A stretch of 64,000 bases of DNA from positions 3,563-67,562 of IMG/VR virus record IMGVR_UViG_3300048588_000891. One strand, 5' to 3'. The position numbers and the translations under genes are program-made. This DNA comes from a virus. Each line of letters begins with the position of its first letter. Within the stretch, counting starts at the first letter, position 1. Under the pieces are notes generated by a model. The model ran no database searches, had not been told where the DNA came from, and was given only the letters and a program-made list of their open reading frames with translations. Below are positions 5 through 17,118 of this stretch, in pieces.

Positions 5-3000
5 GTGAAAAGAGCGACTGAAGCGCATATAAGGCATCGCGAGGAACTGGACCGGGAGCGCGCAACCATGGAAGCGTCCAGGCGTCCCACAGAAGAGCAG
101 ATTGCGAGGCTTGAAAGGCTCAGAAATGCCCTGAAGGAGTCAAGGGACGCCAAGGCATCAGCTGACCGAATGCTTCGTGGCGCCGAGGGGACACTTGAAG
201 GCAAACGGCAGTTTCTATCCGTGACGCATTCCAGAATTGGAACCCTGGAGTCGGCCCGCAATGCGGCCATTTCGGGGGGCGCTTCCGAGGCGGAAATCCA
301 GCGGATCACCCAGTCGCTGGAAAAGGAAAGGCTCAAAGCCCGGGAGCTTTCCGATGCCATGTATATCTATGAAGCTGAAGTCCGGAGAGCCGCAGCCGCT
401 TCTCTGGAAGCTGCCGCCCGGCTTGATGAGATGAACCGCCAGCTTTCTGAGCAGAAAAAGCTCATGTCAGGCATGCCTACCCAGGAGGAAACGGCCAGAC
501 TCGAAGCCCTGGAAAAGCAGGTTCATGATTCCGGCAAGGCCATGGCCGCGGCCAAAAAGGAGGAAAAGGAGGCCACCGACGCGCATCGCGCGCATGCAAA
601 GGCAGCCTCCCAGGCCGGGGAAAGTCTGGAGCAGCTTGAAAAGAAGGAGCGTGACCATGCGGCCGCCGTGGCAGGAAGTGAGCATCAAATTGAAAAGGCC
701 AGGGAGGCATCCAATCGCTACTCATCATCCCTTCAAAAGCAGGGGCACAATGTCGAGGATCTGACCGAGGCTCAAAGAAGGCACAATCAGTCGGTAGAGC
801 GTCAGCAGTATCTGGCCCGTCGCCAGGAGGAACTGAATGGCCTCCGCGACCGCGCCCAGGATCTAAGGTCACAGGCCATGAGCCATCTTTATTTCACGCT
901 TGGCAGCGGCTATCTCTTTACGGCTCCCCTCAGACATGCCCTCGAATTTGAAAAGGCCATGGTCAGGGTCAAGGCCATGTCAGGTGCCAATTCCGAGGAA
1001 TACCGGCGTTTGAGGGACGAGGCGAGAAGGCTTGGTTCGGAGACCATATTTTCGGCAAGGGAGGTGGCTGAAGCCTATAATGAGTTGGCCACCGCGGGTT
1101 ATCGCACCAATGATATGATCGCGATCATGCCCAGCATGCTGGCTCTTTCGGAAAGCTCGATGACATCCCTCGCCCGCACGGCCGAGATCACAAGCGAAGT
1201 GCTGCAGGGCTTTCGGATCGATGTCTCGGAGATGGCCAGAGTCGGTGATGCTCTGACGGCCGCCTACTCATCATCGGCATCCAGCCTTGAATCACTCGGG
1301 GAAATGCTGAAATACGCGGCGGCTCCGGCCGTTGATGTCGGCTCGTCCCTTGAGCAGACCCTCGCCGCATCATCCATTCTTCACAACACCGGCATCAAGG
1401 GATCCATGGCGGGAACGAGCATGCGGGCCATATTCCTTCGGATGGCCAAGCCTCCCAAGGAGCTGAAGAAAGTTCTTGATGCCATGGATATCAGTACGGT
1501 GGACAAGGATAAAAATGTTCGGAACTGGATGGATGTGCTATCGGATATCAATCTAAAGCTCAAGGGCGCGGGCAGCGCAAAACGCGCCGCTGTCTCCAAG
1601 GCCATTGGCGGCGAGGATCACGCGCCGGCCGCATCGAATCTTCTGGCTGCCGTCGATAGCGGTGCGCTCCGTTTCATGGAAAAGACCTTGAAACTCGCCG
1701 GCCCATTCAACCTTATGGCCAAAAGGCTTCTTTCCATGCCCGATGCGGAGCTGCAAAAGGTTGCGAACAGCCTTGGAGTGAAGCTCAGGAGGGCCATGAG
1801 TGGAGGCGGTATGGCCCTGGCTTTTGCGGAGTCCCTGAAAGGTCTCAAGGGATCAGATTTTGACCGGCAAATGCAAAGGATATTCACCGAGCTGAAGCTG
1901 ACGCCGAAGCTGGCGGATATCAGGCCCGATGAGTTTATCGGCACCGGCAAAAACGTGGACAACGCTTTAAAAAGCCTTCAAATCAGCCGCACCAAACCTC
2001 TTGGGGGAACGAAGACCAGCGAGGAGCTGACATCCGAGATCAAAACGCGCATTCAGATGCTGCCCGTATCCGAGCAGCTGAAATTCATCGAAATATTCTT
2101 CTCGCGCACGCGGAGCGGGGTGAGAGAGCTTTTCACCGAGTTTCAAAAGGGCGGAAAGAATGCGGACCAGCTACTGAAAGGACTTGATGAAGTTCTCAAC
2201 ATGGAAAAGGCAAAGAAGGGCCTCAGCGAATCGACCATCAATGATCTTAAAAAGCTGGAAAGCGCCTGGGATGACATCAAAATCTCGCTCGGAAACTCCC
2301 TGATCCCCATGCTGAAGGACCTTCTTGTCTCAATTCAGCCCATCGTCGATGGCCTGGGCAAATGGCTGAGGGAGAACCAGACGATGGCCAAAAACATCAT
2401 GCTCGGCGTTGGATCTCTCTTCGCATTCAGCGCGGCCATGGCCGCAGCAAAATTTGCGCTTTCAGGCTTTGTTGACCTTTGGCGTGTGGGGAAATGGGGC
2501 GCTGGACTTTTCGGACCTGGCACCCGTGGTCGTGCAGGTCTGGGCTGGCTTAAGACCGGCCTTGGAATTGGAAGAAATTTTCTTCTGGAAGGGCTCGTCA
2601 AATCAGGCTCCCTTGCCCGCTCCTCGCTCGGCATGATCATGAACGCCGCCCGCGCGGCAGGCGCTGCGCTTCTTGCGATGGGGCCTGCCGGCTGGGCTGT
2701 GGCGGCAGCCGTTGCGGCTGTGGCGGCAGCCGGGATTTATCTCTGGCGGAACTGGGATGAGATAGGACCAAAGCTGAAAAAAACCTGGGCCGGAATAAAA
2801 GCCTGGTTTCAGAATCTCTGGGGATCGATTGCCAATACCGCGGGCGCCGCCTGGGGCTGGATTCTCGAAAGAATCAGCATGGATCCTCTCATCTGGGTGA
2901 GGGAAAAGTGGGAGCGTTTCCTTCTATTTTTCAAAGGGATTTACGCGCGAATCAGGCCCTATATCTCAGGGATTTTCCCATGGATGGAGAATGCCGGATC

Positions 3001-3292
3001 CGATATCAAAGGCTTTCTGTCAGACGCCGCCACTGCCGGGAAAACCGTGCTCGGGAGCATGTTTGATTTTTCAGGATTCAAGTATGTGGCGCCACCATCA
3101 GAGGTGATTGAGAAGGCAGCTGCTGACACAAAAGTCACTCAGCGCAATGTGATCACGGTCAACGCCACGATTCATGTGGAGGCCGCAGCGGCAGCACCGC
3201 TGCAGGTGGCCAGCAGAATCAAAGGCGAGATCCAGTCAGCCTTCCGTAACGTCCCTTCGTTTTCATTTCTTGATCCTGTTGTGGTGAGCTGA
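5..3292 (+). CDS. Phage tail tape measure protein (5' truncated by window edge)
   Basis: Long coiled-coil N-terminus; TP901-type core (FEKAMVRVKAMSGA...ARRLGSETIFSAREVAEA...GIKGSMAGTSMR); Ala/Gly/Trp-rich C-terminus; followed by gpU/gpX/gpD-like genes. Frame is open from the window start. Confidence 0.95.
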   Translation: MKRATEAHIRHREELDRERATMEASRRPTEEQIARLERLRNALKESRDAKASADRMLRGAEGTLEGKRQFLSVTHSRIGTLESARNAAISGGASEAEIQRITQSLEKERLKARELSDAMYIYEAEVRRAAAASLEAAARLDEMNRQLSEQKKLMSGMPTQEETARLEALEKQVHDSGKAMAAAKKEEKEATDAHRAHAKAASQAGESLEQLEKKERDHAAAVAGSEHQIEKAREASNRYSSSLQKQGHNVEDLTEAQRRHNQSVERQQYLARRQEELNGLRDRAQDLRSQAMSHLYFTLGSGYLFTAPLRHALEFEKAMVRVKAMSGANSEEYRRLRDEARRLGSETIFSAREVAEAYNELATAGYRTNDMIAIMPSMLALSESSMTSLARTAEITSEVLQGFRIDVSEMARVGDALTAAYSSSASSLESLGEMLKYAAAPAVDVGSSLEQTLAASSILHNTGIKGSMAGTSMRAIFLRMAKPPKELKKVLDAMDISTVDKDKNVRNWMDVLSDINLKLKGAGSAKRAAVSKAIGGEDHAPAASNLLAAVDSGALRFMEKTLKLAGPFNLMAKRLLSMPDAELQKVANSLGVKLRRAMSGGGMALAFAESLKGLKGSDFDRQMQRIFTELKLTPKLADIRPDEFIGTGKNVDNALKSLQISRTKPLGGTKTSEELTSEIKTRIQMLPVSEQLKFIEIFFSRTRSGVRELFTEFQKGGKNADQLLKGLDEVLNMEKAKKGLSESTINDLKKLESAWDDIKISLGNSLIPMLKDLLVSIQPIVDGLGKWLRENQTMAKNIMLGVGSLFAFSAAMAAAKFALSGFVDLWRVGKWGAGLFGPGTRGRAGLGWLKTGLGIGRNFLLEGLVKSGSLARSSLGMIMNAARAAGAALLAMGPAGWAVAAAVAAVAAAGIYLWRNWDEIGPKLKKTWAGIKAWFQNLWGSIANTAGAAWGWILERISMDPLIWVREKWERFLLFFKGIYARIRPYISGIFPWMENAGSDIKGFLSDAATAGKTVLGSMFDFSGFKYVAPPSEVIEKAAADTKVTQRNVITVNATIHVEAAAAAPLQVASRIKGEIQSAFRNVPSFSFLDPVVVS

Positions 3293-3295
3293 AAG

Positions 3296-3736
3296 ATGGC
3301 GTTTGATCCCATTCCGCTTTTCAAAAAAGAGGTCTTTGCAAGGCTCGGGGACTTCAGTTTCGAGCTTCTGACGCTTTCCCCTGAGAAGGTTGAGCGGGAA
3401 ACGGGCTACAGGTGGGTGAAGCAGGAGCCCATCGGCGCGCCTGCCATTCACCAGTATATCGGGGCCTTGGGAAAAACCACGGGACCATCCGAGGATAAAC
3501 TGACCATTGCCGGTATTCTGCACCCGGAATTTTCCGGACGGATTGATCACTTGAAAAGGCTGCGGGACATGGCCGCCACGGGAAGGCCGCAGCGGCTCAT
3601 CTATGCCGACACCCAGATCGGGCAGAACATGGGCCTATGGATCATTCAGAAGATCAAGGAATCACGCTCGATCTTTTATGGCGACGGCATTCCGCGACGC
3701 ATTGAATTCAGCCTGGAGCTTGAGTTTTATGGCTGA
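3296..3736 (+). CDS. P2 gpU-like tail protein
   Basis: LGDFSF...YRWVKQEPIG...QYIG...LTIAG...G.W.I..I.E..S.FY.DG.PRRIEFSLEL pattern; directly after the tape measure gene. Confidence 0.88.
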   Translation: MAFDPIPLFKKEVFARLGDFSFELLTLSPEKVERETGYRWVKQEPIGAPAIHQYIGALGKTTGPSEDKLTIAGILHPEFSGRIDHLKRLRDMAATGRPQRLIYADTQIGQNMGLWIIQKIKESRSIFYGDGIPRRIEFSLELEFYG

Positions 3737-4995: not shown

Positions 4996-5457
4996 TCAGA
5001 CCCCCAGTTCGCCGCGAATCTCAGCCCAGTATTTCTCGATGACAATGTACTGCTTCGGGAGCGGTCGACGCTCCAGCTCCTCATGCCCCCGATAGCCCGC
5101 CGATCGCGCGGCACTGAGAAAGCTCGCGAAGGCAGAAGGCAGTGCGTTTTCCCTCCCATCCTGCGCCCACCTCATCTGAACCTTCAACTGGTATTGAGCC
5201 CGCAAAACCTTGTGGAGAAGACGAAGCCGCTTAGGGTTGACCTTGGCTTTTAGAAGGTATTGTTCATCGCTTGGGTCATGCTTTACGCGCAAAAATTCGG
5301 CGTATCTCTCGCAGAGCTTGCGGACCCCAGTATTCGGCGTCTTCGCCCGTTTTGAAACATCACGAAACGTGAGAGGTTCGGTGCCCAGCTTCTCGCTGAG
5401 CAGCCACAGGGCAGGCGGACGCCCGTAACCGCCTCGGTGGTGCTGGATTGTTTTCAC
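4996..5457 (-). CDS. Small basic putative HTH DNA-binding protein, third gene of the par operon
   Basis: LTFRDVSKRAKTPNTGVRKLCERY resembles an HTH; starts 13 bp after the upstream gene, same strand. Confidence 0.5.
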   Translation of the reverse strand: MKTIQHHRGGYGRPPALWLLSEKLGTEPLTFRDVSKRAKTPNTGVRKLCERYAEFLRVKHDPSDEQYLLKAKVNPKRLRLLHKVLRAQYQLKVQMRWAQDGRENALPSAFASFLSAARSAGYRGHEELERRPLPKQYIVIEKYWAEIRGELGV

Positions 5458-5470
5458 TTAATCGCTCCGC

Positions 5471-6766
5471 CTATGGGATCAAATATGTGTTTCTTCGAGC
5501 AGTCCTCCCTTTCTGCTTTTGAAATAACCCTTTAGCTAGCAAATTGTTGACTAGACGAACTGTGTTGGATGCGTCACTTCCAATAGACTTGGCAATCTCA
5601 GCTAGACTCAATTTAGATCCCGCCTCCCAATCCTTATGGAGGTCTATGAGCACTGTCAGTAGAACCTTCATTTCATTCGCAGACAAGTCGGCCTGGACTG
5701 CTTTTTGTAGGATTTCAACGGCCTTCTGATGAAGGATTCGGACTTTCCGAATGTTCTTTCTATCAATTGGGCTACTTAATGCTGTGCTGTCTTCGCTGAT
5801 ATTATCGTCGTCGACAGCATCATCTATGACAGCATTTGATCGAACACTGTGCTCTAAAACAGTCTCTTTGCTGACAGTGTTCTGGTTAACACTGTCTTGA
5901 GTAAGAGTGTTTAGGAAAACAGTGTTTGATTTGAAAGTATCATCACGAACAGTGTCGTCTTTGATGCTATTTTCACTGATGGTGTTCTGCCCAACACTGT
6001 TATCGACGATGGCGTTTGCCAGCATAGCATCATGTGGGATGTTATTCGTCAGAACAGTATTATCAGGAACACTGTTCTGGACAATATTATCCTTATCAAT
6101 AGTATCCTGAGTAATGCTGTAGGCAGCAACATTATTCGCATTAATGCTATTTGCTGAAACAGTGTTGTCCAGAACAGTATTGTAGGAGATAGGTTTGTTT
6201 TGAATGTTGTCATCAATAATACTGTCGTCAAGAACACTGTTATGCAAAACAGTGTTCTGATCAATAATATTACCATCGCCCGGATGGTAGGCACTCAGAA
6301 CATTATTGCCAGGAACAGTATTATGCCGAACAGTATCATCCGTGACGATATCGGCTCCGGCATTGAACCTGTTTATCGCAATGCTGTTCTCTTCAACAGT
6401 GTTCTGTACGATAGTGTTGGAGTCTACACTGCTGTCCCCCTCTTGAGGTTGTGAATCGACCTCTTTGGAATGGAAGACAGAAACAGTGTTCGCTTGAATG
6501 TTGTCGACCGGTACAGTGTTCTGGGCGATACTGTTTGATAGGATAGGGTCGCTATCCTCTAAATTATTGGAATATTTTACATTTGTGTGATCCGCTGAGG
6601 CTCCAATGCGCTCTTCCATAACAGCATGGCCAGCGGATTTTCCACTTTTGCTTTTCGCCTTTTTCTCAGCGAGTTCTCTTCGTTTGGCCTCTCGCTCGGC
6701 CTTTTGAGCTGCCAGCTGTTCCATTTTTTCTTTGTGACTAATCCCAGCTTTTTCTCGACTAGACAT
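5471..6766 (-). CDS. Putative partition adaptor: basic N-terminus, pentapeptide [ND][TSN][VI]xx repeat region, C-terminal winged HTH
   Basis: Start overlaps parA stop; C-terminal LSANEMKVLL...LSLAEIAKSIGSDASNTVRLVNNLLAKGLF...RNTYLI is wHTH-like; no ParB CTPase GxRR motif. Confidence 0.65.
   Translation of the reverse strand: MSSREKAGISHKEKMEQLAAQKAEREAKRRELAEKKAKSKSGKSAGHAVMEERIGASADHTNVKYSNNLEDSDPILSNSIAQNTVPVDNIQANTVSVFHSKEVDSQPQEGDSSVDSNTIVQNTVEENSIAINRFNAGADIVTDDTVRHNTVPGNNVLSAYHPGDGNIIDQNTVLHNSVLDDSIIDDNIQNKPISYNTVLDNTVSANSINANNVAAYSITQDTIDKDNIVQNSVPDNTVLTNNIPHDAMLANAIVDNSVGQNTISENSIKDDTVRDDTFKSNTVFLNTLTQDSVNQNTVSKETVLEHSVRSNAVIDDAVDDDNISEDSTALSSPIDRKNIRKVRILHQKAVEILQKAVQADLSANEMKVLLTVLIDLHKDWEAGSKLSLAEIAKSIGSDASNTVRLVNNLLAKGLFQKQKGRTARRNTYLIP
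5790..6545. repeat. Degenerate 15-bp-periodic repeat with palindromic core AAYA-N-TRTT inside the adaptor gene
   Basis: Many AACAGTGTT / AACACTGTT / AACAGTATT / AATGCTATT 9-mers in 15-bp register; the antisense frame (ORF 6200..6454) also reads NTV/NSV/NSI. Confidence 0.85.
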
Positions 6767-7844
6767 GAGCCTCAACCTCCTGGGTTGACCGCTTTGCTTG
6801 TCTAAAGGATTTAATTTGTTCAGCCCAGGAACCTAGATCAGCCATCGACCAGACCAAGTCTTCAATTCCCCCAACCGCAGGGCGAGCCTTTGCAGATTTC
6901 CAGACATTACTCTCACTATCAAAGGCATTCTCGAATGGCTTACAACTTGGGATGATCACGTCGGAAACATCTTCACCATATTGCTCTTTCAGTTTTGCAA
7001 TTCGCTCATAGCTAGATGTGCTGCGCCCATCAACCTTGTTGGATACCAAAAGGATCTTAGGCTTGACCTTATATTGGCTATCGACAAACTTGATGTGGTC
7101 GGTCGTCAGCTTTAACCCTTTGAAACTGAACTTGTGAATGTTGACGGGGATGATGCACTGATCTATATAGCAATGAACGGCCATACTCACGCTGTTAAAG
7201 TCACATGGTAAGTCGAATAGAATAAAGTCGTAGTCTGCCTCTATCTTTTCGAGAAGATTTTTGAAGAGATATCCTATGTTGACTTTGCTTTCGTTGACCC
7301 TGAAATCCAAATTCGCCAAACCAATGTCAGCCGGGATCAGGTGCAGGTAGTCGGTCAACTCACAAATGGCGACACTCGGATCATAACGCTTGGGGCGCGC
7401 GAGATACTCCTCGAACAAGTCCTTAAGAGTGATAACCCCTTCCTGCTCATCATCGATCCCAAAAGAGTTTGTAAGGTTGGCCTGTTTATCAACATCAATA
7501 AGAAGAACCTTAAACCCATACGCAGAAAGCTTTGCAGCCACAGTATGAATGATCGACGTCTTGCCAACGCCTCCTTTCACCGAATGTGAGGCTTTTTTGC
7601 CCTTTTTCCTTTTTACTGGCCAGTTGCGAAATCTCAGGATCTCGTTGAGAGCCTTGGGATAGATAATAACCGTATCCTTACCTTTTGTAGCAACTTCGAT
7701 GTCTCCCTCTTTTATGATGCTATGTACCGCTTGAACTGAGATGCCCAGCAGGTCAGAAACCTCTTTAATCGTAAGGAATAGGTCAACAACCTCGGAATTG
7801 TATGCAATCTGAGGTGGAGTCCACCAAGACTCTTTTGTGCTCAT
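6759..7844 (-). CDS. parA: ParA/Soj-family partition ATPase with N-terminal HTH
   Basis: Deviant Walker A KGGVGKTS, VLLIDVDKQANLT, YDFILFDLP; N-terminal LTIKEVSDLLGISVQAV; likely start MSTKESWW at 7844. Confidence 0.93.
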   Translation of the reverse strand: MSTKESWWTPPQIAYNSEVVDLFLTIKEVSDLLGISVQAVHSIIKEGDIEVATKGKDTVIIYPKALNEILRFRNWPVKRKKGKKASHSVKGGVGKTSIIHTVAAKLSAYGFKVLLIDVDKQANLTNSFGIDDEQEGVITLKDLFEEYLARPKRYDPSVAICELTDYLHLIPADIGLANLDFRVNESKVNIGYLFKNLLEKIEADYDFILFDLPCDFNSVSMAVHCYIDQCIIPVNIHKFSFKGLKLTTDHIKFVDSQYKVKPKILLVSNKVDGRSTSSYERIAKLKEQYGEDVSDVIIPSCKPFENAFDSESNVWKSAKARPAVGGIEDLVWSMADLGSWAEQIKSFRQAKRSTQEVEAHV

Positions 7845-8009
7845 TTTACACCCAGCTTTAAAAGTTTTGATATTTTCTATGAATTTTATCAAGTAGCCGT
7901 CGCGATAATAAAGCATGAAGCAATTATAGCAAGTTGATTTCAAAAAGTAGCCGCAAAAAGTCAACATGATGAAGTTTATACGTCGGTTACTATGGCCGTA
8001 GTCAAATGT

Positions 8010-8153
8010 GTTAGTGTTCTCTACGACAGTATTAGCAGCACCAGTGTTACCCGCACCAGTGTCGCCCGCACCAGTGTCGCCCGCACCAGTGTTACCCGCA
8101 CCAGTGTTACCCGCACCAGTGTTACCCGCACCAGTGTTACCCGCACCAGTATT
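8010..8153. repeat. Tandem 15-bp array (ACCAGTGTTACCCGC), 8 near-perfect plus 2 degenerate units; candidate centromere or iterons
   Basis: Units start at 8040, 8055 ... 8145; degenerate cores at 8010 and 8025 in register; lies between divergent parA and rep. Confidence 0.9.
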
Positions 8154-8333
8154 GAAAATGACAACTACCGGATCTGAAGTAAATTCTTAAACTGAGATAC
8201 GTTGCATCTCTCTAACGGGAGACTTCACACAACTAAATTTTAGCCTGTTACGAAACTCACCATTCACGCGCCCTTGCTGAATCTGCCAAGGCTGACGTGA
8301 ACGGATCAGGACCCATTTTGCCTGGAGCCAGGG

Positions 8334-10019
8334 ATGGCCGCTTTTGCTGAAGTGCTTGAATGGAAACCTGGCCGCCGAAATCGCGAACGTCCTGAAACAC
8401 CGGGCGGGAACATTGCTCGCGGGCATCATATCTATGGATACTGGACATATAATGACGACGGCTCCAAGGATCAGGCATTCCCGCTGGGAATGAACCATAA
8501 GGTTTTCCCGAGCCAAGAGAAGCTGATTAGCACGGCTGTATGGAATCCAGGAAAGAAGACTTGGACCCTGCTTTTCATGCAGTTCGATCTCGACTTCAAG
8601 AATGCGAATCCAAAATGGATTCTTGACGGAAAAATTTCCTGGCCATTGGTACAGGAGCATTTGCGGGTACACGAGCCGAAATTTTTTGAAGCGATTGTGT
8701 ATGCTGTCATGTCCACGGGAGGCTGCGGGCTGTCAATCGTCCTTTCGATTGCACCGTTTGTGCTTTGTGACGAGAATAGAACGATCGAATCCCGCGCGTC
8801 GCATCTGCAAACCATGCTCATAAAAATGCTCAATCATCATGGCTTGGGGGCTGACTACAGCGCGGCGGGCCTTAAGCGGTTCATGCCAAATTTTAAGAAC
8901 CCAAGGCGGCTGATTTATGAGAACGCCATCCGACGCAAATGGGTCGAGAATACCCGGCATTTTGTTGTCCGCGAGCTGTACCTGGCTTATCGGGATCACA
9001 TTGCCTGCATCTATATCCGCAAAACGGAGCGATTGGAATCCTTTCTGCACCCTGACTTTCGGGTCGAAAAGAAGCTGGCTAAGCTCTACTTCCAGCTGGA
9101 CTGTGTCATAGCTCCCGGAGGCATCCGGAATTGCTCTTTGAAAGAGATTTGCGAGCTTACAGGCATGTCGCCATCCTCATTCTATCGTTCCGTGCTTGCG
9201 CGGGCCGACGTTCTCAAATGGCTTGAAATCAAACCGCTCGGGGGCCGCAAGGGATATGATCTGAAGTTCCTGGGCAACCCGCATTATGATGCCCGGGTCC
9301 AGGAAATCCTATTTGGGTCCGCGAAGCCGGACCATCGCGAGACAGTTTCCAGGCCGCAGGTCGACTCCGAACCCGCCGACGTCGTAGACGGCGAGCGCAA
9401 CACTTTCCTCTGGCAGTCAGCAGTAAAAATGAAACACGCCCTCATCCCCGAGGAGACGGCGCTGGCTGCGCTTCGGATCATCGCCAGCGGCGTGCCAGGG
9501 TACGGAGGAAGAGACAGCTGGTCTCTGCGTAATCCCGAGCGAATCTGCCGCTCTATCTATAAGTGCCGCCCGCGTGAGGGCAACAGCCCTGTTCTCCGGC
9601 AGCTGCCAGGGTATCTATATATTGCCGTGAAACAGGCAGAAAAGCGGGCAAACCAAGCCAAAAAAGCTTATGCGAAAAATTTAGATGTTGGAACCCTATT
9701 GGGTTCCACATTGTTCGCAGCAGTACCAAGCAGCCCGGAGCGGGAGGTCTCTCGGTTTTCCTCCCAGGCTTTCCCTTCCCACACCCCGGCGGGTGTCAGG
9801 CCGGGGGGTACGGGGGCGGGCCAGGCCCCCGGTCAGGTGGTTGATACCCAACTGCATTCCACCCAGGTGGTTGATACAGAACAGCCTGAAATTTACCCAG
9901 CAGCGGACCGCGCGATTTTTGAACCGGCGCCACAGATTGCTAGGCTGGTAACCGGTGGAATGCCGACGACCGGCTCCGTGCAGTCCCCAGTCGGTCATGC
10001 AGCGGAGGACAAAAACTAA
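8334..10019 (+). CDS. Putative plasmid replication protein (primase-type, PriCT-like domain)
   Basis: FDLD motif, STGGCGL, central HTH (SLKEICELTGMSPSSFYR), PriCT-like DGERNTFLWQSA; divergent from parA next to the repeat array; GGAG RBS. Confidence 0.65.
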   Translation: MAAFAEVLEWKPGRRNRERPETPGGNIARGHHIYGYWTYNDDGSKDQAFPLGMNHKVFPSQEKLISTAVWNPGKKTWTLLFMQFDLDFKNANPKWILDGKISWPLVQEHLRVHEPKFFEAIVYAVMSTGGCGLSIVLSIAPFVLCDENRTIESRASHLQTMLIKMLNHHGLGADYSAAGLKRFMPNFKNPRRLIYENAIRRKWVENTRHFVVRELYLAYRDHIACIYIRKTERLESFLHPDFRVEKKLAKLYFQLDCVIAPGGIRNCSLKEICELTGMSPSSFYRSVLARADVLKWLEIKPLGGRKGYDLKFLGNPHYDARVQEILFGSAKPDHRETVSRPQVDSEPADVVDGERNTFLWQSAVKMKHALIPEETALAALRIIASGVPGYGGRDSWSLRNPERICRSIYKCRPREGNSPVLRQLPGYLYIAVKQAEKRANQAKKAYAKNLDVGTLLGSTLFAAVPSSPEREVSRFSSQAFPSHTPAGVRPGGTGAGQAPGQVVDTQLHSTQVVDTEQPEIYPAADRAIFEPAPQIARLVTGGMPTTGSVQSPVGHAAEDKN

Positions 10020-10271: not shown

Positions 10272-11651
10272 TTGCAACCGATCTATGGTGAGATATTGAC
10301 TTTCATTCGCCCGAGGCTGACGGACCATTTTGGCATTTCAATTAGTCAGGAAATTGCCGATTTCGCGATTCCTTTTCTCGACGAAGATTTACCGCTGTTC
10401 GTAGATCCGTTTCTTCTCTGGAAGTCCCCATCGCAGCAGGACCAAGCTCTTCATCAGAGCATGATCCACGCATTTCGCGCTCTAATTTCGAAGGGAACCG
10501 AGGACCAGAGAGTAAAAAAGTTGCAGGCAATTTCAGAATGTGATGAAGTCGGACTTGGATCATCAGCAACCCGCCGCGGCGTACGAATCGGAGCACCGAT
10601 TGCAAGATCACTCATTGCTCATTTCGAAGCTAATAAGGGAAGCGAGATTGATCACCTTGAAGAAGTACAGCTTCTTGTAGATCAAGTCTCGAAGGACAGG
10701 ATTAGTGATTTTGCTTGCACTCTACTAAAGTCATTTATTATTGACTTCACTATTGATCAGTGTCTCAAGTACTGCATTCCAATGCAGAGAGCAAGTATCG
10801 GCTATATCTACGACCCTAGGAAGGACTCGTTTGGTTCTGTAGACGTCAATGTCCCTTGTAACCCACGCGACGGAAAGCCTTTACTTCTTGTTCCCAAAAG
10901 GTGGCTGAGATTCAGCCCTTGGATCAGCTATGAAGATTATTTCAAAAACCACTACCTAAAGAAGTATGTCGAAGAAGGAAGTGAGTACCCTGGCCGGATC
11001 GAGACTCTGAGCTTTAATCGCGATAATTACGGAGTGGTTAAGCAGTATATCGAGGTTCGAGAGAGAACGTCCACCGACTGTCAGAATGATCCTCTATTTA
11101 CAGCTCTTCCTGTCGTCTCAGCAAAGCGAACCTTTAATGCAATCCAGAAAATTGTGTCTGGGAATGCGGAAGGTGCCGATAAACAATATGAAGAGCATAT
11201 CTGTAAACTTCTGCCATCACTTTTCTATCCACACTTGGACTTTGCTAGTGCGCAGTCTCGGACAGAGTCAGGCGTACATATACGCGATCTCATTTTCTAC
11301 AATAATAAGGGCACCGACTTCCTCAGCGAAATCTGGGACAAATATTCGTGTCGTCAGATCGTCTGCGAACTAAAAAACGTGAAGGAATTGGAACGCGATC
11401 ACATAAATCAGCTCAACAGATACCTCAAAGAGTCTTTTGGATTTTTTGGCGTCTTTGTCACACGGAATAAACCAAAAAAGAATATTTACAGGAATTTAGT
11501 GGATCTTTGGTCGGGGCAAAGAAAGTGCATCCTGGTCTTGACCGACGAAGATATCGAACTGATGGTGAATGTCTTTGAGTCGAAACAACGAGCGCCAATA
11601 GAGATACTCAAGAAGAAATACGTGGAATTTATGCGGGACTGCCCTGGTTGA
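10272..11651 (+). CDS. Putative PD-(D/E)xK nuclease-domain protein, candidate defence gene
   Basis: C-terminal YEEHI...RDLIFYN...IVCELKN...INQLNRYL fits a restriction-like nuclease motif; first gene of the AT-richer island. Confidence 0.55.
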   Translation: MQPIYGEILTFIRPRLTDHFGISISQEIADFAIPFLDEDLPLFVDPFLLWKSPSQQDQALHQSMIHAFRALISKGTEDQRVKKLQAISECDEVGLGSSATRRGVRIGAPIARSLIAHFEANKGSEIDHLEEVQLLVDQVSKDRISDFACTLLKSFIIDFTIDQCLKYCIPMQRASIGYIYDPRKDSFGSVDVNVPCNPRDGKPLLLVPKRWLRFSPWISYEDYFKNHYLKKYVEEGSEYPGRIETLSFNRDNYGVVKQYIEVRERTSTDCQNDPLFTALPVVSAKRTFNAIQKIVSGNAEGADKQYEEHICKLLPSLFYPHLDFASAQSRTESGVHIRDLIFYNNKGTDFLSEIWDKYSCRQIVCELKNVKELERDHINQLNRYLKESFGFFGVFVTRNKPKKNIYRNLVDLWSGQRKCILVLTDEDIELMVNVFESKQRAPIEILKKKYVEFMRDCPG

Positions 11652-15906: not shown

Positions 15907-17118
15907 TTAACCAGTGCAGGTGTTAGGGAGATTAGGAAATCCATCGAGTTCGGCATCAATTTTATTTAAATAATCTTTAACATTTCCTGAATTCAATGAA
16001 CTCAAGAAGGCATCAAGCGCATTTTGCAAGTCAACTAAACGGGATATATCAATATCCACCTGCTTCGATCGTTCAAAAATGCCAGACAGTTCGATTTCGG
16101 AAAAAAATGTTTCGCGTTCCCAGAATTCAATCTTCAGACGACTGCAGGCATCCTTTGCTTTCTTAGTCAAGTATGATGTTGTTATAAGCATGCAATTGGT
16201 TGCCGAATACATAGACGCGCCACCTTTGAGTTTCATAACGTCTTCACTGCCAACAGTATAATTTTCGTTGTATCGTTTACACTGAATGGCAATCGCTGAG
16301 ACACCCAATTGACTTGCGATAAGATCCACTCCAAAATCGCCCGTCTGCGGTGTTTTTTTTACTGAGAATCCTTTGCGCTTGAAAATTTCGGCTACCAAAT
16401 CCTCGAATTGAATCCCTGTCATCGAATCAATTTTGTCTTTAGACGAAATTAAGCTCTTCTGAATGGTTTGGCACTCATAGATTTTTATTTGCATCTTTTC
16501 TTTTACTTTACGGATGTGATCAAGATGTGGATACAATTTTTTCACAGCATTACAAAAATCGTCGCTGGTATTTATAGATTCCAAGAAATCGCGCGGATAT
16601 TTCTTCCCTTCCAAAAAATTATCAACTATAGCTGATATAGGTTCAACCCTGTCAACCCAGTTTTCAAGGCGCGAGATAGTGCCCTCGCCCTCGAGATTTT
16701 TCATCATTGATTCGTGAACTGCAGAATAGACTCGTTCTTCTTTTTTATTTTTTCCCCTCATACCCAGCGCGCCCGATCCGAGTTTAGTCTCTTCTGCGGC
16801 TTGATAAGGTGAAGAGAACTCTTTTCTCATAGCCTCAGCAAAGATGCGTTCAAAATCTTTTGGCGAAATTTTTGATTTTGCCAAATCAAGAAGTTTCTCT
16901 CTTTCTAAGAGTGATTTTTTTCTGCTAAATTCAATATAAAGAATCGAGGCCAAAACCCCAAATACACAGGCCAAGAATGGATTTATCTCGATAGAAAATA
17001 CCGCGGACAATAACCAGCTAATGAGCAAAGCTACTGGCACTGTGACCACGCTATAAAAAAGCACTAGAAAAATATATAATAATATTACAACCAAAGTCTC
17101 TTCAGTTGGATTTGACAA
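15907..17118 (-). CDS. Membrane-anchored Mrr-family restriction endonuclease
   Basis: N-terminal TM helices; Mrr_cat motifs GIQFEDLVAEIF...TPQTGDFGVDLIA...AIQCKRY...LITTSYLT. Confidence 0.88.
   Translation of the reverse strand: MSNPTEETLVVILLYIFLVLFYSVVTVPVALLISWLLSAVFSIEINPFLACVFGVLASILYIEFSRKKSLLEREKLLDLAKSKISPKDFERIFAEAMRKEFSSPYQAAEETKLGSGALGMRGKNKKEERVYSAVHESMMKNLEGEGTISRLENWVDRVEPISAIVDNFLEGKKYPRDFLESINTSDDFCNAVKKLYPHLDHIRKVKEKMQIKIYECQTIQKSLISSKDKIDSMTGIQFEDLVAEIFKRKGFSVKKTPQTGDFGVDLIASQLGVSAIAIQCKRYNENYTVGSEDVMKLKGGASMYSATNCMLITTSYLTKKAKDACSRLKIEFWERETFFSEIELSGIFERSKQVDIDISRLVDLQNALDAFLSSLNSGNVKDYLNKIDAELDGFPNLPNTCTG

Follow-up and report, generated by a model that had tools for sequence, protein, structure and literature searches.

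Partition systems are classed by the type of their ParA ATPase and the fold of their adaptor, with the centromere taken to be non-coding DNA that adjoins the genes. Type Ia systems include ParA-ParB-parS of P1 and SopA-SopB-sopC of F, and type Ib systems with upstream iteron arrays include ParF-ParG-parH/OF of TP228 and delta-omega of pSM19035. In RepA_N plasmids, the origin sites are tandem repeats in the variable central region of the initiator gene. Here we analyzed a partition cassette in 64,000 nucleotides (the window) of the virus record IMGVR_UViG_3300048588_000891, namely bases 3563-67562 of this 67.6-kb record, which is rated ~94% complete. We identify the cassette as a ParA partition locus whose adaptor belongs to an undescribed family. 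A 15-bp repeat stands both upstream of parA and, translated, inside the adaptor gene, and the coding repeat is probably, though by no means certainly, a second block of adaptor binding sites.

The cassette resembles type Ia loci in its large ParA with an N-terminal helix-turn-helix (HTH), in the adaptor gene that follows and in the repeated cis sites. It differs in that the adaptor carries a predicted MarR-like winged helix instead of a ParB/CTPase domain, and in that the sites are short 15-bp tandem units ahead of the operon and within the adaptor gene instead of after it. With type Ib loci it has in common the short direct repeats ahead of the operon, which serve there as operator and centromere, and the flexible N-terminal tail with which the adaptor acts on ParA, a tail that is predicted in our case. 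Type Ib adaptors are, however, small ribbon-helix-helix dimers and their ParA lacks the HTH, whereas the window adaptor has 431 aa and a predicted winged helix, and its second array is translated.

Binding sites inside genes were also considered. The report on ParA-ParT-parS of SCP2 in Streptomyces describes a CTP-independent adaptor with parS within its own coding sequence, as ChIP-seq and binding assays showed, and in one experiment the internal parS was recoded synonymously (PMC12260392). The likeness to our locus is an adaptor that would work without CTP and whose proposed sites lie within its own coding sequence; ParT differs in having one 18-bp inverted repeat and a ParB-like DNA-binding domain, whereas the window has tens of candidate tandem sites that create the repeat region of the protein, and a different predicted DNA-binding fold. 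Several papers mention a single parS inside parB genes. According to another report, the oriV of repABC is located inside repC (PMC3155836). In repC and RepA_N genes, sites for a plasmid maintenance protein lie inside its own gene as here, but they serve replication initiation, not partition, and the proteins belong to other families. Our literature search, in which subscription journals were thinly covered, found no description of tandem translated centromere or iteron arrays in partition genes, only single parS sites in parB or parT.

The repeat in the adaptor gene was noticed by a first-pass annotation made from the letters of the window, which put it at 40-50 units. The repeat was confirmed but the count was slightly generous: 39 units are in register, spanning aa 81-328 or ~50 pentapeptide slots, with 31 consecutive one-phase slots at aa 174-328. 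Bases 1-9 of the unit form the core RAYAVYRTY (AACASTGTT), which is read as [ND][TSNA][VI]xx, and bases 10-12 and 15 are near-uniform. Codon choice in the core was strongly skewed. Threonine was encoded by ACT in 17/18 cases, compared with 17% in 28 phage open reading frames (ORFs), 3/14 in parA and 3/10 elsewhere in the gene (binomial p 1e-12 to 2e-8), and valine by GTT in 18/22, compared with 24% in the phage ORFs and 15/31 in parA (p 2e-8 to 1e-3). Serine at unit position 2 was always AGY, as annotated (10/10; AGT 7, AGC 3; 30% in the comparison), and the third base of core threonine and alanine codons was a pyrimidine in 22/22. The third bases of the xx codons were flat (A21 G20 T20 C17). 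With these unconstrained neighbours randomised, the synonymous bases retained in the core cannot stem from recent duplication. These bases are held by something besides the amino-acid sequence.

The exact word AACASTGTT occurred eight times in the 64 kb, all eight within the gene, against a mean of 0.34 and a maximum of 2 in shuffled sequences. The broader pattern RACASTGKY, derived after both arrays had been seen, gave 33 strand-matches, 22 of them at 11 sites in the gene, 7 in the upstream array and 4 elsewhere (4.0 expected). The antisense reading of the repeat, also noted at first pass, was borne out: the adaptor protein matched the translated antisense strand of its gene (E 4.5e-10 and 3.8e-7, with stops), and there is an antisense ORF at 6200-6454.

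The annotated intergenic array with a 15-bp period and a CAGTGTT core was recovered by the program TRF (8027-8150, 8.3 copies, 93% matches); it consists of phased units that read GGTAACACTGGTGCG in the gene sense, and CAGTGTT occurs in it five times. It is placed 166 bp upstream of the parA start and 175 bp from the start of a divergent gene for a 561-aa protein, between the promoter-like sites of the two. As in type I partition loci, a cis-acting repeat array thus adjoins the operon. A log-odds position weight matrix (PWM) built from the 39 coding cores alone, the comparison proposed at first pass, was run with a hit threshold of 5 bits. It gave ten matches in the array at 8010, 8025 ... 8145, spaced exactly 15 bp apart, which made this the densest cluster outside the gene in the window; the next densest 150-bp window had 4 matches, and 0.56 are expected (64 kb). 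A single upstream unit matches the coding core at 8/9 bases (ACCAGTGTT), with a chance probability of a few percent, and the array has the same period. Two mechanical ORFs of ~60 aa each (repeats TSVTR and PAPVL) run through the array at 7992-8190 on the plus strand; we do not regard them as genes because the array merely has no stops.

To follow the two arrays beyond the window, loci of relatives were retrieved from genome, viral and metagenome contigs with a ParA alignment; a single-protein ParA search in viral contigs had returned nothing, and the alignment query was needed. We examined 27 loci with near-full-length ParA matches and two plasmid records. The other 149 loci (55 of 63, 40 of 43 and 54 of 70 in the three retrievals), with partial ParA matches or matches below ~30% identity, were left out, as were L074 and L116, whose adaptors duplicate those of L073 and L015. 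The partners encoded downstream of parA fell into five groups. Group a has the plan of the window adaptor, a basic N-terminus, pentapeptide repeats and an alignable C-terminal winged helix (the window, L009, L010, L011, L013, L072, L073 and L115; L014 has the same winged helix and no repeats; the adaptors of L009 and L010 are cut by contig ends, that of L009 after 174 codons, with the C-terminus outside the sequence). A profile search with the group-a winged helix found eight proteins of 323-433 aa, all with this three-part plan. Group b has a central winged helix and a C-terminal domain (L007, L008, L015, L016, L117-L120, L122, L123, L126, L130), group c comprises small proteins of 82-149 aa (L121, L125, L127-L129), and the partner in L131 is unclear (group e). 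In L012 the partner is of ParB type with GHRR (group d; 2753-3712) beside a ParA of 38% identity in the same clade, so that the adaptor type has been swapped within the ParA clade. The plasmid partners from Bdellovibrio and Piscirickettsia are relatives of one another (5e-9); because the window winged helix gave no BLASTP alignment with them, we assigned them to a second adaptor family.

In group a, the pentapeptide varies by locus (DSV/NTI-type, ATAET, K[ST]V-type, ASKTE/G, NADTS with A[NI]A, and SDASK-type), and each repeat-bearing locus has a non-coding array with a 15-bp period that resembles its own coding unit. In L009, whose ParA is 88% identical, the upstream units consist of GACACTGTT and a spacer and equal the coding core. 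Coding and non-coding units were identical at 11/15 positions in L010 and at 12/15 in L013 and L115, compared with mostly 6-8 for random units; L013 reaches 14/15 by eye when half of its 30-bp consensus is taken. Comparison of the upstream arrays of the window and L009 shows conservation of the core RACACTG alone; the spacers differ (GTGCGGG and TAGGCCG).

Sharing of 12-mers between coding and non-coding DNA (at least 11/12 identity, within a locus compared with the cross-locus mean, 26 loci) was in clear excess in 8/26 loci. In group a these were L013 (74 vs 3.4), L011 (31 vs 7.8), L072 (80 vs 12.6) and L073 (61 vs 13.3). The winged helices of L072 and L073 are identical and their motif is shared; each locus matches the other as strongly as it matches itself (88 and 93), which is what one expects of a motif that follows the binding domain. 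The same two loci use GCA for the first alanine of the unit and GCT or GCC for the third (Fisher p 8e-5 and 2e-3): the third base is A in 13/18 vs 1/18 in L072 and in 12/20 vs 2/20 in L073, counts in which the units include recent duplicates and are not fully independent. Constraint on the protein only does not predict such position-specific alanine codons. In L014, the adaptor gene has no coding repeat and is closely followed by two arrays of a 17-bp unit (5722-5848 and 5949-6127; 7.5 and 10.5 copies, 95-100% matches); these sites stand outside the gene, and their period is not divisible by three. Strict odd palindromes were seen in the window, L009 and L072 only, and not in L010, L011, L013, L073 or L115.

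The coding arrays of group b have an 11-12-bp period. Their core word is read in two to three frames within one gene in 9 of the 10 genes tabulated, with spacings of 11, 12, 22 and 23 bp, and can therefore only be a repeat at the DNA level. The word recurs upstream of parA, as 12-mer sharing indicates for L008 (178 vs 16.6), L015 (81 vs 11.9), L123 (97 vs 10.3) and L130 (36 vs 8.2), and L119 has a weak cluster. L008 is a Piscirickettsia plasmid whose upstream array was read directly; a paper on P. salmonis plasmids reports that iterons were not identified. In L120 (2098-2299), L122 (1570-1763) and L126 (1751-1939), 16-18 copies of an 11-bp unit run within ORFs and give an 11-residue peptide periodicity; in L120 and L122 these runs flank the winged-helix part on both sides.

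The coding and non-coding arrays thus co-vary across independent relatives, which supports the reading that the repeat doubles as a binding-site array. Together with the synonymous constraint in the core beside random xx codons, this supports the first-pass proposal that the repeat is selected as DNA. A broader reading, to which we give about an even chance, is that the whole ParA clade, comprising phage-plasmids, plasmids of Oligoflexia/Bdellovibrionota and Piscirickettsia, and uncultured relatives, would use a dual-coded centromere. The linker would then exist because the sites of the winged helix run through the gene, and the gene itself would be a partition site. Sites would be spaced 15 bp apart and stay in frame in one adaptor family, and in the other they would follow at roughly each helical turn and fall in any frame; array and DNA-binding specificity would co-evolve, and the peptide would be largely a by-product of the DNA word.

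The mechanism that we propose for the window is as follows. ParA would be the motor and the 431-aa protein the centromere-binding adaptor, whose basic N-terminal helix would contact ParA and whose MarR-like winged helix would recognise RACASTG(K)Y. The ten upstream copies, 15 bp apart between the divergent promoters, would act as operator and centromere, and ~40 further copies at the same spacing would lie within the adaptor coding sequence. Since 15 bp equal five codons, the second array would be translated as an unstructured pentapeptide linker, and slippage would keep the frame; the encoded peptide would need only solubility and flexibility. Sites in the gene body may enlarge the partition complex to several hundred base pairs, and their occupancy could damp expression of the adaptor itself.

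Several observations weigh against binding sites in the gene. In the window, the two arrays have just a 7-8-base core in common. The chance of one match of at least 7 bits in a 15-bp unit is ~2%, and since tandem copies are not independent, counts over the whole array overstate significance. The upstream units have C where 39/39 coding units have A, a base that is fixed because asparagine and aspartate codons force it; the upstream units thus reach only ~7 of 13.6 bits. Sharing of 9-mers and 12-mers in the window was at background (9 vs 8.2 and 10 vs 9.6), a test of repeated 8-mers failed for the window, and the cyclic identity between the single consensus units of its two arrays, 8/15, lay within the random range. 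Exact AACASTGTT is present in just 8/39 coding units, with one mismatch in 9 and three or more in 14. The odd palindrome described at first pass is a property of the column consensus only: 9/39 units are perfect 9-bp palindromes, and pairing of the arms within units (positions 1-9, 3-7 and 4-6) was no better than in column shuffles. The N/D, V/I and T/S/N/A substitutions are also conservative at the protein level, and unit position 5 favours polar residues, a feature that the upstream array lacks, which indicates that protein-level selection acts too. The AlphaFold2 model, built on an 8-row family alignment, has a predicted local distance difference test (pLDDT) score of ~30 and no secondary structure over aa 47-336, but with so shallow an alignment this does not prove that the repeat is disordered. 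Among the relatives, 18/26 loci showed no 12-mer excess. Among these are the window, L009, L010 and L115, where matches are shorter or further away, and the loci that lack coding repeats; the sharing tests were weak for L009 and L010. The repeat-bearing L007, L117, L118, L120, L122 and L126 had no array in the available flanks, some of which are 490-650 bp.

Much of this would fit a pentapeptide selected only as a linker, with arrays that share their origin by duplication or gene conversion and an adaptor that binds the non-coding array only. The conservative substitutions, the polar fifth position, the degeneracy of most coding units and the background level of exact-word sharing in the window are what this explanation leads one to expect. 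We nevertheless consider it unlikely, as it leaves unexplained the ACT and GTT codons of the core beside randomised xx codons, the position-specific alanine codons of L072 and L073, and the motifs read in two to three frames at 11-12-bp spacing in the sister adaptor family. In addition, an adaptor that recognises the upstream core should encounter that core in the gene as well.

The upstream array might also consist of origin iterons for the divergent 561-aa protein, instead of a par centromere and operator. The array is close to the start of that gene, whose homologues (30-35% identity) stand divergently upstream of parA in L009, L010 and L115 only; in L115 the matching array lies 2.3-2.4 kb upstream of parA and adjoins the homologue. 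The 561-aa protein, however, matched no replication family in Pfam, PHROG or NCBIfam, and the array of L009 and L010 lies near parA (~150 bp) and away from the homologue (>1 kb). What weakens this explanation is that eight loci (L008, L011, L013, L015, L072, L073, L123 and L130) have matching arrays upstream of parA without such a homologue in the flanks. We regard it as improbable, and the iteron and centromere/operator roles could coexist. The 561-aa protein may be the replication protein of this phage-plasmid group.

A pentapeptide-type beta-solenoid, that is a DNA mimic like Qnr and MfpA with the DNA periodicity as a by-product, was another candidate, and it is the outcome against which structure prediction was proposed at first pass. 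The five-residue period with a hydrophobic third residue recalls PF00805-type pentapeptide-repeat proteins, one source names the L072 protein a pentapeptide-repeat protein, and RefSeq gives that name to an antisense ORF of a lactococcal look-alike. Unlike PF00805-type proteins, the adaptor has no match to a Pfam pentapeptide-repeat profile at E<=0.1 and no predicted beta-helix: the AlphaFold2 model is without strands at aa 47-336, and so is the ESM Atlas model without a beta-helix (predicted template modelling score, pTM, 0.24). Nor is the repeat conserved among relatives, and their unrelated pentapeptides (ATAET, ASKTE) would not be tolerable for a conserved solenoid. We therefore hold a solenoid to be very improbable. 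A chance likeness of the two arrays in the window, which could be argued from a resemblance, seen post hoc, that consists of 7-8 bases and the same period, is hardly credible, since the likeness recurs with different words in independent loci and nothing but the core is conserved between the upstream arrays of the window and L009.

Features of the partition cassette and its neighbours in the window
Feature	Coordinates	Strand	Remarks
153-aa ORF	4996-5457		after the adaptor gene; no family
Adaptor gene	5471-6775	-	ORF from TTG 6775; 431/434 aa
C-terminal winged helix-turn-helix (predicted)	5480-5761	-	aa 339-432; AlphaFold2 pLDDT 75-92
Coding repeat	5792-6535	-	39 in-register 15-bp units
Basic N-terminal helix (predicted)	6650-6736	-	aa 14-42; AlphaFold2 pLDDT 83-96; proposed ParA-contacting tail
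parA	6759-7844	-	361 aa from ATG 7844; partition ATPase with N-terminal excisionase/MerR-type HTH
Promoter-like site for parA	7905-7932	-	TTGCTA-16-TATTAT, 9/12 consensus; pattern match only
Intergenic array	8010-8159		10 phased 15-bp units; proposed operator/centromere
Promoter-like site for the 561-aa gene	8158-8185		pattern match only
561-aa gene	8334-10019	+	diverges from parA; no family

The probable start of the adaptor is ATG 6766, 9 nt after GGAGG, where the gene overlaps the parA stop by 8 bases; the ESM Atlas entry begins at residue 4 of the longer ORF, and the L009 homologue begins MSSRQK. The annotation that the gene after parA lacks the ParB CTPase motif held, since no ParB/CTPase domain was found in Pfam (E<=0.1), PHROGs or NCBIfam and the protein does not belong to ParB, Spo0J or SopB. 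No curated family in these databases matched at its cut-off either, so that the suggestion of an undescribed adaptor type agrees with the fact that no known adaptor family fits.

The basic N-terminus and the C-terminal winged helix, both proposed at first pass, were recovered in the AlphaFold2 model. The C-terminal domain has the order of a long helix, three helices and a beta hairpin. Its top Foldseek matches were MarR-family proteins (MepR, SlyA, MexR; E 2e-3 to 1e-2; no match reached 1e-3). The ESM Atlas model matched only via aa 334-434. Winged-helix families in Pfam matched aa 363-428 below threshold, MarR, IclR and TrmB profiles matched the C-terminus below their gathering scores, and a profile of the family's C-terminus found the winged helices of CodY (9e-5) and AdcR (1.3e-4), and also Lrs14, among PDB sequences. 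By prediction, the C-terminus is a generic winged helix with a MarR-like fold.

A complex prediction for ParA and adaptor aa 1-70 scored 0.51, compared with 0.01 for the best of three controls; at least 48% of contacts agreed between runs, and partner pLDDT was at least 59. The mark used was reached by 58/80 solved complexes and 2/110 mismatched pairs, and among scores <=0.60 that pass it there were only 7 of those 80 complexes and both passing mismatches. The model thus weakly supports contact of the adaptor N-terminus with ParA. Considered together with the gene overlap and the basic tail, the prediction modestly favours the adaptor role.

Searches detected no homologue of the adaptor over its whole length. 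A word-indexed search returned 6354 candidates, none at E<=1e-3. Exhaustive phmmer gave 322 matches at E<=1e-3, and almost every one of the 150 listed lies within the repeat region (aa 69-344); the seven sequences inspected among these repeat-region matches are unrelated low-complexity pentapeptide proteins, with ENTLG or YNTIQ repeats for example. The only winged-helix match among those listed was P0056 (76 aa, 48% identity). A tblastn search of phage records gave no matches, and six tblastn matches in plasmids were repeat-on-repeat only, to a lactococcal/carnobacterial HTH protein with (DDTVK)n. This look-alike was dropped as a relative because the origin iterons of its plasmids are an unrelated 22-bp unit. 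In three Lactococcus and Carnobacterium plasmids (L001 3869-4576, L002 1331-2068, L003 29-775), the HTH protein is encoded directly 3' of repB and has 15-30 copies of DDTVK/GNTVK (15-bp unit) and a coiled-coil tail; the iterons lie upstream of repB and do not resemble the coding unit. Two RefSeq records annotate the antisense ORF instead, as a 'pentapeptide repeat-containing protein'.

The parA product matched Pfam AAA_31 (5.6e-31) and CbiA (2.1e-14), both above cut-offs, and PHROG 164 (ParA-like, 3e-36). It has the deviant Walker A motif HSVKGGVGKTS, which follows KGGxGK[ST] and places it with ParA/Soj/MinD-type proteins, and HTH_17 matched aa 64-111 of the long parA ORF just above its cut-off (27.3 vs 27.0 bits, E 4.4e-6). 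The start was placed at 7844 because relatives have exactly 361 aa (88-67% identity). Homologues numbered 44 at E<=1e-20, with a top identity of 88%. In NCBIfam, matches to RepA (5.5e-12) and SopA (7.3e-6) were below cut-off. From these profile matches and the N-terminal HTH architecture, we class this ParA as type Ia-like and outside the SopA and RepA equivalogs. The stretch around the promoter-like site of parA is conserved in L009.

Many of the 52 larger ORFs of the window matched tailed-phage families in a PHROGs scan. The structural matches were tape measure, tail, baseplate, small and large terminase, portal, protease, decoration and major head proteins, and a RecT-type annealing protein, a helicase and a methyltransferase were also matched. 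No integrase was matched in PHROGs at E<=1e-5 among these ORFs. With a partition cassette and no integrase found, the simplest reading is a phage-plasmid, and the phage probably persists as a plasmid. Beyond the 561-aa gene, a 459-aa protein (10272-11651, plus strand) has a weak PD-(D/E)XK-type match and belongs to a PHROG of unknown function, and a 403-aa protein (15907-17118, minus strand) matches a restriction-endonuclease PHROG (3e-14). The two may be defence or anti-defence cargo beside the maintenance region.

The cassette adds to the known partition systems an adaptor family that lacks a curated profile and combines a predicted ParA-contacting tail, a repeat linker and a predicted MarR-like winged helix. 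It also adds, as we propose, a centromere layout with tens of translated sites. If the adaptor does bind these sites, this would explain odd repeat proteins encoded beside ParA genes, which are now annotated as 'pentapeptide repeat' or 'hypothetical', and would make the locus an example from nature of dual coding over a long range, with the peptide sequence dictated by DNA-binding specificity. Such binding would also give a simple rule for finding the centromeres of uncultured plasmids and phage-plasmids, namely to inspect the gene after parA.

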